The position numbers and the translations under genes were made by a program. Shown piece by piece: positions 3,109 to 45,919 of a stretch of DNA of 64,000 nucleotides (its first letter is position 1; every line of letters starts with the position of its first letter). This DNA is from Escherichia coli (lineage in GTDB: Bacteria; Pseudomonadota; Gammaproteobacteria; Enterobacterales; Enterobacteriaceae): assembly GCF_036507355.1 (NCBI RefSeq), contig NZ_AP027877.1; one strand, given 5' to 3'. The notes under the pieces are model-generated. The model saw nothing but the letters and a program-made list of their open reading frames with translations, did no database searches and was not told the DNA's origin.

Positions 3109-3156
3109 AAGTAAAGCAGGGTAGCGATAACGCTACCCTGCTTTCTGCAAGAATAA

Positions 3157-9107: not shown

Positions 9108-9371
9108 CCTATTATCTAAAGATGAAAATTATTAGAGCCGCATTAAAAATGAGCTAATTTTGATAGTGGTTATCTTGTGATTATTTTCTAATGAGCCCGT
9201 GAGCTGAAACCCTCCATGCTTAATAAAAGGTGGAGGGAAAGTGATTGAAAACTCACCCAGTGATCAGCTCTTTATAAAACATGAACAGGTTGAAAAAGAC
9301 AGTAACTTTGCTGTTTTTTTATCCTTAACCACTATGCATTAATGCTGTGTTATTTCATTCTACCTAAGAAA

Positions 9372-9403
9372 AACCAGCGTTACGCAAATGGTCAACGCTG
9401 GTT
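9372..9403. terminator. bidirectional hairpin terminator downstream of yhiM
   Basis: Perfect 10-bp stem AACCAGCGTT / AACGCTGGTT with a 12-nt loop, flanked by T-runs on both strands. Confidence 0.6.
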
Positions 9404-9421
9404 TTATCCGGTACGTTGCAA

Positions 9422-43499: not shown

Positions 43500-44550
43500 G
43501 CGCGATGCAATCAATCATATTCGGCAGTTTGGCGGGCGTCTTGATCGCTTCCGTAAATCGGTCGGCGGCTCAGGCGACGGCGGTCGTAACGCGCCGAAAC
43601 GCGCGAAATCCTCGCCAAAACCGGTAAATCGCAAAACCAACGTTTTCAACGAACAGGTGCGCTATGCCTTCCACGGCGCATTGCAGGATCTGAAAAGCAA
43701 ACCGTTCGCCACGTTTTTAACGGTGATGGTTATCGCCATCTCTCTGACGCTGCCCAGCGTCTGTTATATGGTGTACAAAAACGTTAACCAGGCGGCGACG
43801 CAGTATTATCCGTCACCGCAAATCACTGTTTATCTGCAAAAAACGCTGGACGATGACGCTGCTGCGGGCGTGGTGGCACAGTTGCAGGCCGAGCAAGGCG
43901 TAGAGAAAGTGAATTATCTTTCTCGTGAAGACGCACTGGGCGAGTTCCGTAACTGGTCTGGTTTTGGTGGTGCGCTGGATATGCTGGAAGAAAACCCGCT
44001 TCCGGCAGTGGCGGTGGTGATCCCGAAACTCGATTTCCAGGGTACGGAATCACTCAATACGCTGCGTGATCGTATCACGCAGATTAACGGCATTGACGAA
44101 GTACGGATGGATGACAGCTGGTTTGCCCGTCTGGCGGCGTTGACCGGGCTGGTCGGGCGCGTTTCGGCGATGATCGGCGTGTTGATGGTGGCGGCAGTGT
44201 TCCTCGTCATCGGTAACAGTGTACGCCTGAGTATCTTTGCTCGTCGTGACTCCATTAACGTGCAGAAACTGATTGGTGCAACGGATGGTTTCATCCTGCG
44301 CCCGTTCCTGTACGGTGGCGCATTGCTGGGGTTTTCTGGCGCATTGTTGTCACTAATTTTGTCAGAAATTCTGGTACTGCGATTGTCATCGGCGGTTGCG
44401 GAAGTGGCACAGGTTTTCGGAACGAAGTTTGATATCAATGGCTTATCGTTCGATGAATGCCTGCTATTGCTGCTGGTATGCTCGATGATTGGCTGGGTGG
44501 CAGCGTGGCTTGCCACGGTACAACATTTACGCCACTTTACGCCTGAATAA
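43492..44550 (+). CDS. ftsX: cell-division ABC-type membrane protein
   Basis: ORF 43465..44550; likely start [12 protein letters not shown] overlapping the ftsE stop. Confidence 0.92.
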
Positions 44551-44565
44551 TAAAAGCGTGTTATA

Positions 44566-44602
44566 CTCTTTCCCTGCAATGGGTTCCGTAGCAGGGAAAG
44601 AG
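44566..44602 (+). terminator. stem-loop after ftsX
   Basis: 12-bp perfect inverted repeat CTCTTTCCCTGC ... GCAGGGAAAGAG; no strong T-run, so possibly an attenuating rather than full terminator. Confidence 0.45.
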
Positions 44603-44674
44603 ACCCCGTTGTCTCTTCCCGGTATTTCATCTCTATGTCACATTTTGTGCGTAATTTATTCACAAGCTTGCATT

Positions 44675-44701
44675 GAACTTGTGGATAAAATCACGGTCTG
44701 A
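44675..44701 (+). promoter_or_regulatory. sigmaE-dependent promoter of rpoH (P3-like)
   Basis: GAACTT, 16 nt, TCTGA (GAACTTGTGGATAAAATCACGGTCTGA), matching the sigmaE -35/-10 consensus, about 95 nt upstream of rpoH. Confidence 0.75.
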
Positions 44702-44794
44702 TAAAACAGTGAATGATAACCTCGTTGCTCTTAAGCTCTGGCACAGTTGTTGCTACCACTGAAGCGCCAGAAGATATCGATTGAGAGGATTTGA

Positions 44795-45649
44795 ATGACT
44801 GACAAAATGCAAAGTTTAGCTTTAGCCCCAGTTGGCAACCTGGATTCCTACATCCGGGCAGCTAACGCGTGGCCGATGTTGTCGGCTGACGAGGAGCGGG
44901 CGCTGGCTGAAAAGCTGCATTACCATGGCGATCTGGAAGCAGCTAAAACGCTGATCCTGTCTCACCTGCGGTTTGTTGTTCATATTGCTCGTAATTATGC
45001 GGGCTATGGCCTGCCACAGGCGGATTTGATTCAGGAAGGTAACATCGGCCTGATGAAAGCAGTGCGCCGTTTCAACCCGGAAGTGGGTGTGCGCCTGGTC
45101 TCCTTCGCCGTTCACTGGATCAAAGCAGAGATCCACGAATACGTTCTGCGTAACTGGCGTATCGTCAAAGTTGCGACCACCAAAGCGCAGCGCAAACTGT
45201 TCTTCAACCTGCGTAAAACCAAGCAGCGTTTGGGCTGGTTTAACCAGGATGAAGTCGAAATGGTGGCCCGTGAACTGGGCGTAACCAGCAAAGACGTACG
45301 TGAGATGGAATCACGTATGGCGGCACAGGACATGACCTTTGACCTGTCTTCCGACGACGATTCCGACAGCCAACCGATGGCACCGGTGCTCTATCTGCAG
45401 GATAAATCATCTAACTTTGCCGACGGCATTGAAGATGATAACTGGGAAGAGCAGGCAGCAAACCGTCTGACCGATGCGATGCAGGGTCTGGACGAACGCA
45501 GCCAGGACATCATCCGTGCGCGCTGGCTGGACGAAGACAACAAGTCCACGTTGCAGGAACTGGCTGACCGTTACGGTGTTTCCGCTGAGCGTGTGCGCCA
45601 GCTGGAAAAGAATGCGATGAAAAAACTGCGCGCTGCTATAGAAGCGTAA
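44795..45649 (+). CDS. rpoH: RNA polymerase sigma-32 factor
   Basis: 284-aa [38 protein letters not shown]... Confidence 0.97.
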
Positions 45650-45670
45650 TTTCCGCTATTAAGCAGAGAA

Positions 45671-45702
45671 CCCTGGATGCGAGTCCGGGGTTTTTGTTTT
45701 TT
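45671..45702 (+). terminator. rpoH intrinsic terminator
   Basis: CCCTGGA-TGCGAG-TCCGGGG hairpin (one G-U pair) followed by TTTTTGTTTTTT. Confidence 0.7.
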
Positions 45703-45919
45703 GGGCCTCTACAATAATCAATTTCCCCTCCGGCAAAACGCCAATCCCCACGCAGATTGTTAATAAACTGTCAAAATAGCTATTCCAATATCATAAAAAT
45801 CGGGTATGTTTTAGCAGAGTATGCTGCTAAAGCACGGGTAGTCATGCATAAAATGAAATAAAGTGCTGAACAACAACATCACAACACACGTAATAACCAG
45901 AAGAATGGGGATTCTCAGG

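Follow-up and report, generated by a model that had tools for sequence, protein, structure and literature searches.

A multi-promoter rpoH control region downstream of ftsX in Escherichia coli, with the sigmaE promoter P3 and a leaky 3'-end hairpin overlapping P1

Which signals lie between the end of ftsYEX and rpoH, and how do the transcripts that end there and those that begin there share the same DNA? The 244-nt ftsX-rpoH spacer occupies positions 44551-44794 of the window (the whole 64-kb stretch of E. coli DNA that was analyzed), between the ftsX stop codon and the rpoH ATG, as given by the list of open reading frames, the sequence and the RefSeq annotation. The spacer was found in 5,425 of 5,426 complete E. 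coli genomes, and positions 44428-44878 are base-identical to K-12 MG1655 except for one SNP, which is located inside ftsX. We consider it, with a probability of about 0.85, to be a multi-promoter rpoH control region that combines the sigmaE promoter P3, a leaky hairpin at the end of ftsYEX and the overlap of this hairpin with promoter P1, together with steps of RNA folding and 3'-end formation that we infer. The rpoH control region and P3 as such are already known. The features discussed below are the following:

44548-44550, plus strand: ftsX stop codon TAA, directly followed by a second in-frame TAA (sequence, list of open reading frames, RefSeq annotation)
44559-44567, plus strand: extended -10 element of P1, TGtTATACT, with a poor -35 region inside the end of ftsX (sequence)
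44566-44602, plus strand: hairpin with a perfect 12-bp stem, then an A.A mismatch, 4 further bp and a GUU loop, its 5' arm overlapping the P1 -10 and +1 (repeat search, RNA fold)
44575, plus strand: mapped transcription start site (TSS) of P1, 220 nt before the ATG (SMRT-Cappable-seq, M9 sheet)
44594-44620, plus strand: candidate alternative hairpin, GGGAAAGAGAC with GUCUCUUCCC, reusing the 3' arm of the main hairpin (fold prediction)
44608, plus strand: mapped ftsYEX 3' end, 6 nt past the stem (SMRT-Cappable-seq, Rich sheet)
44656-44664, plus strand: match to the DnaA-box consensus, TTATTCACA, in the left arm of inverted repeat I3
44675-44680, plus strand: -35 element of P3, GAACTT (motif search, published consensus)
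44680-44688, minus strand: perfect DnaA box, TTATCCACA, sharing the final base of the P3 -35 hexamer and running into the P3 spacer
44697-44701, plus strand: -10 element of P3, TCTGA, in the context CGGTCTGAT (44693-44701) (motif search, published consensus)
44707-44708, plus strand: predicted +1 of P3 (-88/-87), with the A at 44708 (spacing rules)
44714-44722, plus strand: extended -10-like element TGaTAACCT of a proximal sigma70 promoter of the P4/P5 class (sequence)
44731, plus strand: proximal rpoH TSS as mapped in rich medium, 9 nt past TGaTAACCT and 64 nt from the ATG
44737-44771, plus strand: stem-loop UCUGGC...GCCAGA of the 5' UTR, a short way before the Shine-Dalgarno sequence (fold)
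44774-44776, plus strand: strong RNA 3' ends in Term-seq, 21 and 19 nt before the rpoH ATG (PMC7815308 supplements)
44795-45649, plus strand: rpoH coding sequence (sigma32, 284 aa), with its ATG at 44795

General-purpose searches contributed little to this list. P1, P3 and the hairpin all went uncalled in a simple promoter/terminator scan, which returned a sigma70-like match at 44781-44808, judged likely spurious, and a weak terminator-like site within ftsX. The Rfam 15 covariance models gave no match with E <= 1 on either strand of 44300-45800, and a literature search with the spacer sequence as the query had a guide-RNA paper on enChIP as its sole match. An inverted repeat (44641-56/44794-809) through which the P1 leader could base-pair with the rpoH start codon was treated as a chance occurrence, because its complementarity falls from 13 to about 11 of 16 positions in relatives when the sequences are compared by eye.

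P3 is reportedly the founding sigmaE (sigma24, ECF02) promoter, described in 1989 by Erickson and Gross and by Wang and Kaguni. The element in the window is at the same locus and has the same sequence as E. coli rpoH P3, which is bound and transcribed by EsigmaE: GAACTT, a 16-nt spacer and TCTGA. The sequence-only reading had placed a sigmaE promoter about 95 nt upstream of rpoH and proposed it as the envelope-stress input into the heat-shock sigma factor, and both statements hold for P3. TCTGA ends 94 nt upstream of the rpoH ATG, and GAACTTGTGGATAAAATCACGGTCTGA (44675-44701) is the single match to GAACTT-N16-TCTGA on both strands of the window, with no match in 100 shuffles. The published sigmaE consensus comprises a GGAACTT -35 element, a spacer of preferably 16 nt (range 15-19), a (T/C)GGTCAAAA -10 element, a 5-6-nt discriminator and a start at A or G (PMC1312014). 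Six of the seven -35 positions are present in P3 (tGAACTT, 44674-44680), the spacer is exactly 16 nt, and a 6-nt discriminator puts the predicted +1 on the A at 44708. The -10 element retains the T, the invariant C and the final A of TCnnA, whereas its two middle bases differ from those of the later refined consensus TCAAA (PMC1312014).

That this motif is not used by sigmaE, being a chance match or a site of another sigma factor, is extremely improbable. In its favor, only two rpoH starts, at 44575 and 44731, were found by SMRT-Cappable-seq during non-stress growth (PMC6131387 supplements), and the P3 +1 is a prediction. Against it stand the uniqueness of the motif in the window and its absence from the shuffles, as well as its recurrence across proteobacteria, a strict sigmaE-type motif being found in the 300 nt before rpoH at 25 of 80 gamma- and beta-proteobacterial loci (background, 5 matches in 390 kb). 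Binding and transcription by EsigmaE argue in the same direction: genomic SELEX with reconstituted EsigmaE yielded a 37.4-fold peak for the spacer between rpoH and ftsX (PMC5493296), rpoHP3 supports transcription by EsigmaE in vitro, where it is used as a control template (PMC3490749, PMC3326320), and rpoHP3 (e.g. rpoHP3::lacZ) is a standard sigmaE reporter or in vitro template in the literature. GAACTT-N16-TCTGA is the classical sigmaE (RpoE) promoter rpoH P3, with a predicted +1 position. Under envelope stress or extreme heat, sigmaE would be freed from its anti-sigma factor RseA, and free EsigmaE would then make rpoH transcripts that start about 87-88 nt before the ATG, by which envelope stress would be tied to the cytoplasmic heat-shock regulon. 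This sigmaE-to-sigma32 link is central to the biology of bacterial stress, but as it has been on record since 1989, its confirmation brings nothing new.

P3 is also accompanied by potential binding sites for DnaA, which represses rpoH. The DnaA 9-mer TTATNCACA has three matches in the 64-kb window, and two of them, 15 bp apart, are the predicted binding sites at P3. Neither these two boxes nor the overlap of P1 with the hairpin had been mentioned in the sequence-only reading. Downstream of P3, the proximal start corresponds to a b3461 transcript in the Rich sheet of SMRT-Cappable-seq (3,599,880-3,600,847, reverse; PMC6131387 supplements), and its -10-like element reads TGaTATTCT in most relatives. 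The 5'-UTR stem-loop retains the outer CTGGC/GCCAG in relatives, with a different inner sequence, and the Term-seq ends that follow it have scores of 262,424 (g 3,600,804) and 425,251 (g 3,600,802) (PMC7815308 supplements).

The distal start was mapped by SMRT-Cappable-seq in M9 as the beginning of a b3461 transcript (3,599,880-3,601,003, reverse), g 3,601,003 corresponding to 44575 (PMC6131387 supplements). It lies 8 nt past the -10 hexamer, within the 6-9-nt range of sigma70 promoters, and the hexamer is close to TATAAT and preceded by TGn. All 81 distinct Enterobacteriaceae sequences compared have TGnTATA(A/C)T here. A distal sigma70 promoter P1 within a conserved enterobacterial rpoH regulatory layout has reportedly been described by Erickson et al. 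in 1987 and Ramirez-Santos et al. in 2001; the promoter in the window agrees with the published layout in lying more than 200 nt before the ATG (mapped start at -220), in adjoining the end of ftsX and in being conserved in enterics. The extended -10 element of P1 ends in the 5' arm of the hairpin, and the start lies inside this arm. Therefore, P1 mRNAs are unable to form the hairpin, and since they lack its first arm, the hairpin acts on upstream transcripts only. To our knowledge, no published work has commented on this sharing of sequence between the P1 -10 and +1 and the first arm of the ftsX hairpin.

The hairpin itself had been noticed from the sequence as a 12-bp perfect inverted repeat just after ftsX, without a T-run, that might modulate ftsYEX read-through instead of terminating fully, a description supported by the results given here and in the following paragraph. 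The 12 perfect bp are formed by CTCTTTCCCTGC (44566-44577) and GCAGGGAAAGAG (44591-44602), starting 15 nt past the ftsX stop codon, and the repeat can be extended to 17-nt arms (44566-82/44586-602) around a 3-nt loop. Its RNA fold has a free energy of -24.5 kcal/mol (z = -6.96), a stability reached by none of 200 shuffles, and it ranks first among the three separated-arm perfect repeats of at least 12 bp in the window. The 81 Enterobacteriaceae sequences contain 34 distinct versions of the hairpin, each of them able to fold (-14 to -25 kcal/mol), and in an alignment of 29 of these versions 93.4% of the cells are paired. In Vibrio, Pseudomonas, Photorhabdus and others, the ftsX-rpoH gene order is kept and the structures after ftsX are unrelated; the hairpin thus appears to be restricted to Enterobacteriaceae, the close relatives of E. 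coli. The lower stem hardly varies in sequence (5 of its 12 pairs are the same throughout), and the constraint imposed on the first arm by P1 could be the main source of this conservation. The inverted repeat might instead work as DNA and not as RNA, either by forming a cruciform or by serving a dimeric regulator of P1 as its palindromic operator, as would fit its overlap with the P1 -10 and +1 and the near invariance of both 10-bp core arms across Enterobacteriaceae. We consider this improbable: the core arms are 15-20 nt apart depending on the species, a range of 5 nt that agrees poorly with a fixed dimer site, the rare changes in the arms are compensatory (T-A to C-G or A-T at 4 pairs, 7 cells in the 29 versions, matched by 0-2 of 500 shuffles), and an RNA 3' end maps directly past the stem. 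We know of no regulator with the motif of the hairpin arms.

The stem is followed by ACCCCGTTGT... (ACCCCGUUGU), without a T-run, and the terminator scan made no call here; across species, the 10 nt after the stem contain 0-5 T residues, and the relatives also lack a T-run. In rich medium, SMRT-Cappable-seq recorded a transcript of b3464/b3463/b3462 (3,600,970-3,604,315, reverse) whose end is flagged novelTTS (PMC6131387 supplements). The ftsY TSS has 633 reads; 44608 is the end of 146 of them, another 43 stop no more than 50 nt further on, and 69 read through; the median read-through of these transcripts is 70 nt, and long reads spanning ftsE-ftsX-rpoH were recorded as well (PMC6131387 supplements). 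The hairpin is an RNA element of the ftsYEX transcripts, in which both arms are present and pair in a highly stable stem-loop, and whose 3' end has been mapped. It is a leaky, non-canonical 3'-end element, and some polymerases continue into rpoH. The Term-seq lists of Adams et al. contain no 3' end at the hairpin in any of three conditions, so that the 44608 end comes from one dataset.

How this 3' end is formed is less certain. Like canonical intrinsic terminators, the hairpin is a stable G+C-rich stem-loop (-24.5 kcal/mol) at the end of a transcription unit, followed within a few nt by an RNA 3' end; unlike them, it has no U-tract immediately 3' of the stem, lets polymerases through and has further 3' ends dispersed downstream. 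Because the U-tract is missing, we do not regard it as a canonical intrinsic terminator. We give about even odds to a 3' end made by diffuse, probably Rho-aided stops downstream, followed by trimming of the RNA to the hairpin. In such a process, most ftsYEX polymerases would stop diffusely within the C-rich, G-poor stretch of about 100 nt past the hairpin, probably with the assistance of Rho, and the RNA would be trimmed back until the hairpin, acting as an exonuclease barrier. Trimming of Rho-terminated transcripts back to a protective hairpin is known (Dar and Sorek 2018, PMC6061677; discussed in PMC7815308). The ftsX hairpin resembles these cases in its lack of a U-tract, in the C-rich, G-poor RNA downstream, in its diffuse read-through ends and in a bicyclomycin-sensitive signal nearby. 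The 38 nt after the stem (44603-44640) have a C:G ratio of 13:5, a C-rich, G-poor composition of the rut-like type, and the median C/G in the 45 nt after the hairpin is 2.5 in relatives. The bicyclomycin-sensitive breakpoint is at g 3,600,870, i.e. 44708 (Rho score 1.92, p = 1e-11, 800-nt windows; PMC7815308). This position is 100 nt downstream of the hairpin and coincides with the predicted +1 of P3; the score can be read equally well as induction of the proximal promoters by bicyclomycin instead of Rho termination, and to that extent the resemblance to the Rho-plus-trimming transcripts is limited.

The alternative is a non-canonical intrinsic terminator, in which the stem-loop, perhaps with NusA or NusG, would release some polymerases 6 nt downstream without Rho. 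The very stable stem with its G+C-rich core, the conservation of the hairpin and the discrete end at 44608, the commonest single end of transcripts from the ftsY promoter (146 reads), are consistent with such release. However, the U-tract is missing in E. coli and its relatives and the terminator scan was negative, many ends are spread over the sequence that follows (43 of them within 50 nt, with a median read-through of 70 nt), and 44608 is not among the Term-seq peaks, which makes intrinsic release rather doubtful in comparison with diffuse stops and trimming.

Since the first arm of the hairpin is absent from P1 mRNAs, the second arm is available for other pairing in these transcripts. The alternative hairpin is the only one of the two that is open to P1 transcripts. 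Per-sequence folding predicted pairing of the second arm with a third, downstream arm in nearly all of 49 variants (mean z -2.3), whereas RNAalifold on the region of these two arms returned a consensus of only 3 pairs, without covariation; for this reason, we infer the alternative hairpin at low strength. At its 5' end, P1 RNA is predicted to form a small stem-loop at +1, of 3+4 bp with a mismatch, and then a second hairpin; the free energy of -19.4 kcal/mol is not significantly better than that of shuffles (z = -1.65). Based on these predictions, we tentatively propose a fold switch that would depend on the start site, with the arms 44566-77 (1), 44591-602 (2) and 44611-20 (3): arm 2 would pair with arm 1 in ftsYEX RNA, forming the 3'-end and insulator hairpin, and with arm 3 in P1 mRNA. 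In the latter, the freed 3' arm of the main hairpin would thus pair with the downstream pyrimidine stretch, beside the small +1 hairpin. This switch is possible, though not probable.

A stabilizing 5'-terminal stem-loop in the ompA 5' UTR has reportedly been described by Emory, Bouvet and Belasco in 1992. By analogy, the sequence could serve mainly P1 mRNA, whose 5'-terminal structure (44575-44593) and 2:3 hairpin would shield the long leader from 5'-end-dependent decay, the ftsYEX hairpin being a by-product. P1 RNA resembles ompA-type transcripts in its predicted 5'-terminal hairpin at +1, a small one that is not significant relative to shuffles. The two predicted hairpins (-19.4 kcal/mol) and the predicted 2:3 pairing in nearly all of the 49 variants (mean z -2.3) agree with a protective role, but the z-score of -1.65 for the 5'-end fold, the lack of covariation in the 2:3 pairing and the compensatory changes that do exist, which back the 1:2 stem that is unavailable to P1 RNA, make it unlikely, more so than the start-site-dependent switch.

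The gain from this analysis is modest and anatomical: a conserved, leaky 3'-end hairpin after ftsX physically overlaps P1, and its 3' end is a novel, unannotated termination site in public long-read data. Owing to this arrangement, rpoH is largely, though not fully, insulated from ftsYEX transcription. The overlap also suggests that different start sites lead to different transcript folds, and the sole new element, that the start site of a transcript decides which of two hairpins forms, is a weakly supported proposal. If it is true, the insulator hairpin would keep most transcription of the cell-division operon out of rpoH, and the 2:3 leader hairpin of P1 mRNA would have a role of its own, e.g. 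in stability or in Rho access. One piece of DNA, conserved across Enterobacteriaceae, would then give RNAs opposite fates depending on the promoter used.

The window is E. coli chromosome, with ftsY-ftsE-ftsX, rpoH and livJ annotated around the spacer, and a 501-nt query around the ftsX-rpoH spacer matched 5,425 of 5,426 complete E. coli genomes. Since 44428-44878 differs from K-12 MG1655 by a single SNP, which lies in ftsX, published positions in MG1655 (g) were transferred exactly (window position = 3,645,578 - g). The classical rpoH region comprises a distal sigma70 promoter (P1), a sigmaE promoter (P3), proximal sigma70 promoters (P4/P5), and DnaA and CRP/CytR sites; Ramirez-Santos et al. 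reportedly found in 2001 that it is conserved across enteric bacteria. The spacer matches this description, with the following features:

44551-44794: ftsX-rpoH spacer, 244 nt, bounded by the ftsX stop codon (44548-44550) and by the rpoH ATG (44795)
44559-44567, plus strand: extended -10 of P1, TGtTATACT, directly upstream of the mapped start 44575
44566-44577 / 44591-44602: inverted repeat CTCTTTCCCTGC / GCAGGGAAAGAG, 12 perfect bp; with extension, 17-nt arms and a 3-nt loop
44594-44620: second inverted repeat GGAAAGAGAC / GTCTCTTCCC, sharing the 3' arm of the main hairpin
44656-44664: second DnaA box TTATTCACA, just upstream of the P3-overlapping box
44675-44701, plus strand: P3 motif GAACTT-N16-TCTGA (sequence match)
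44680-44688, minus strand: perfect DnaA box TTATCCACA, overlapping the P3 -35 hexamer by its final base and reaching into the promoter spacer
within 44714-44731: extended -10-like TGaTAACCT, 9 nt upstream of the rich-medium start 44731
within 44737-44776: 5'-UTR stem-loop UCUGGC...GCCAGA, 3-5 nt upstream of Term-seq 3' ends

The P3 motif is the single match on both strands of the 64-kb window, and none of 100 shuffles gave any. It ends 94 nt before the rpoH ATG, where the sequence-only reading had placed a sigmaE promoter (about 95 nt upstream). That match was right but somewhat circular, because the original 'GAACTT / TCTGA' consensus of Erickson and Gross in 1989 and Wang and Kaguni in 1989 is said to derive from rpoH P3 together with degP. 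The elements, read as tGAACTT, 16 nt and CGGTCTGAT, fit the published sigmaE promoter model (-35 GGAACTT; strongly preferred 16-nt spacer; -10 (T/C)GGTCAAAA; 5-6 nt discriminator; A/G start; PMC1312014), whose discriminator and start rules place the predicted +1 at C44707 or A44708. The proposed sigmaE input into rpoH agrees with published biochemistry: in genomic SELEX with reconstituted EsigmaE the spacer carries one of the high-intensity peaks, at 37.4-fold (PMC5493296), and isolated rpoHP3, a sigmaE reporter or template in published work, is transcribed in vitro by EsigmaE and serves as a normalising control template (PMC3490749, PMC3326320). P3 has all sequence characters of the sigmaE promoter family, and the biochemical ones are documented in the literature. 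Its start is absent from SMRT-Cappable-seq long reads of unstressed cells, which contain only other rpoH starts.

A strict sigmaE motif (GAAC[TC]T-N15-17-TCnnA; background, 5 matches in 390 kb) lies on the sense strand at most 300 nt upstream of rpoH in 25 of 80 gamma-/beta-proteobacterial loci collected with RpoH, including one Bordetella locus, consistent with PMC3490749. Judging from these motifs, the sigmaE-rpoH link is ancient. In two Pseudomonas loci (L025 and L030, about 1390-1500) the short ftsX-rpoH spacer folds into a long hairpin (-28.5 and -16.4 kcal/mol) enclosing a GGAACTT -35-like sequence, an arrangement unlike the enterobacterial one.

The two DnaA boxes near P3, which jointly form the inverted repeat I3, are two of the three DnaA-consensus matches in the window. 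The proximal rpoH promoters are reported to be repressed by DnaA, and the boxes, as predicted sites, agree with this. TTGCATT at 44668-44674 resembles the CytR recognition motif described by Kallipolitis and Valentin-Hansen in 1998 and is a candidate CytR site. The rich-medium start 44731 probably belongs to the proximal sigma70 class (P4/P5); most relatives read TGaTATTCT where E. coli has TGaTAACCT. Further downstream, very strong Term-seq 3' ends occur at 44774 and 44776 (-21 and -19 from the rpoH ATG; scores 262,424 and 425,251), which Adams et al. merely mention beside the rpoH thermometer (PMC7815308). The RNA ending there may be either a decay intermediate or a stable RNA derived from the 5' UTR. 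In Enterobacteriaceae the outer stem of the adjacent stem-loop is kept and its inner part changes.

The perfect 12-bp repeat reported just after ftsX was recovered with 12/12 pairs. Folded as RNA, it reaches -24.5 kcal/mol (z = -6.96; 0/200 shuffles equally stable), and it ranks top among three separated-arm perfect repeats of at least 12 bp in the window. The other two, at 3113-3144 (14-bp stem, 4-nt loop) and 9370-9405 (12-bp stem, 12-nt loop), are probably terminators of other genes. Rfam gave no family match in 44300-45800 on either strand. Full-length primary transcript reads (SMRT-Cappable-seq; PMC6131387, supplementary data) placed the following transcripts:

ftsYEX, rich medium: ftsY promoter to g 3,600,970; 3' end 44608, six nt past the stem, flagged 'novelTTS' (not a known terminator)
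b3463-b3462-b3461 (ftsE-ftsX-rpoH), condition not stated: reads cross the hairpin; given as an extension of the rpoH operon
rpoH, M9 medium: start g 3,601,003 = 44575, distal promoter P1
rpoH, rich medium: start g 3,600,847 = 44731, proximal promoter

Of 633 rich-medium reads starting at ftsY, 146 end at 44608, 43 stop no more than 50 nt beyond it and 69 pass through, with a median read-through of 70 nt (PMC6131387). Because of these ends and the read-through, the hairpin marks a genuine but leaky 3' end, as the suggested partial termination of ftsYEX had implied. Against this, the 3' ends that Adams et al. list from Term-seq (PMC7815308) include none at the hairpin under any of their three reported conditions.

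As also noted from the sequence, no T-run follows the stem; the terminator scan does not call the hairpin, and a U-tract 3' of the stem is found neither in E. coli nor in relatives. Since a canonical intrinsic terminator requires a U-tract, the hairpin should not be filed as one; its behaviour is that of a leaky 3'-end or insulator element. The best reading, to which we give a probability of about 50%, is that transcription would end diffusely in the P1-leader region, probably assisted by Rho, and that the RNA would then be trimmed 3'-to-5' back to the hairpin. Weak termination driven by the hairpin itself is the less probable alternative. Read-through ends are scattered over about 70 nt past the hairpin (PMC6131387), and C:G is 13:5 in the 38 nt that follow the stem (median C/G 2.5 across relatives). 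Adams et al. (PMC7815308) list a bicyclomycin-sensitive position at g 3,600,870 = 44708 (Rho score 1.92, computed on 800-nt windows; p = 1e-11). This peak is exactly a base predicted as the P3 +1, and bicyclomycin induction of the proximal promoters could equally well account for it.

The hairpin overlaps P1: its 5' arm contains the last two bases of the P1 -10 hexamer and the P1 start site. Because the first base of P1 RNA is the tenth of this 12-nt arm, P1 RNA cannot form the stem, and the 12-bp stem is possible only in transcripts arriving from ftsYEX.

Searching metagenomes with the P3 core in its Citrobacter/Enterobacter form yielded 118 stretches and, with the genome loci, 81 distinct upstream sequences. 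All 81 read TGnTATA(A/C)T followed at once by C-TTTCCCTGC ... GCAGGGAAAG, and each of the 34 distinct hairpin versions folds (-14 to -25 kcal/mol). In an alignment of 29 versions, standard pairs occupy 93.4% of cells and compensatory double changes occur at 4 of 12 pairs (7 cells); only 0-2 of 500 shuffles reached these values, and sliding the partner columns lowered pairing to 47-61%. The loop differs in sequence between versions, and its length ranges over 5 nt (15-20 nt from one 10-bp core arm to the other). This variable spacing and the compensatory changes fit a nucleic-acid hairpin better than a fixed site for a dimer. Because 5 of 12 pairs never vary, promoter constraint on the 5' arm probably accounts for some of the conservation. 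Acerihabitans, an enterobacterial relative outside Enterobacteriaceae, keeps TGTTATAAT and not the hairpin; in more distant taxa ftsX still adjoins rpoH (35/80 loci), but the structures after ftsX are unrelated. A short TTTCAT / TTCAT motif (44625-44630), with the hairpins on one side and the conserved TGTCACATTTTGTGCGTAATTTATTCACA block on the other, holds its relative position in most of the 81 Enterobacteriaceae sequences, with some exceptions; in Klebsiella/Enterobacter-like ones a T-run frequently comes before it.

An alternative partner for the 3' arm (GGGAAAGAG) is GUCUCUUCCC at 44611-44620. In the predicted fold of P1 RNA, a small hairpin at +1 is followed by this alternative hairpin (-19.4 kcal/mol, z = -1.65). 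Predicted folds of 49 variants almost always join the 3' arm to a pyrimidine stretch downstream of it (mean z -2.3), and in Klebsiella/Enterobacter-like sequences its partner is a degenerate copy of the 5' arm. Because RNAalifold gave only three consensus pairs and no covariation in this region, a fold switch governed by the start site is a doubtful hypothesis. A 16-nt long-range repeat (44641-44656 / 44794-44809; 81% complementary), through which the P1-specific leader could base-pair with the region of the rpoH start codon, is probably due to chance (complementarity about 11/16 in relatives).

The sequence-only finding is correct and was already known. The sole new detail is the overlap of the hairpin with P1 and its consequence for which transcripts can fold the hairpin.
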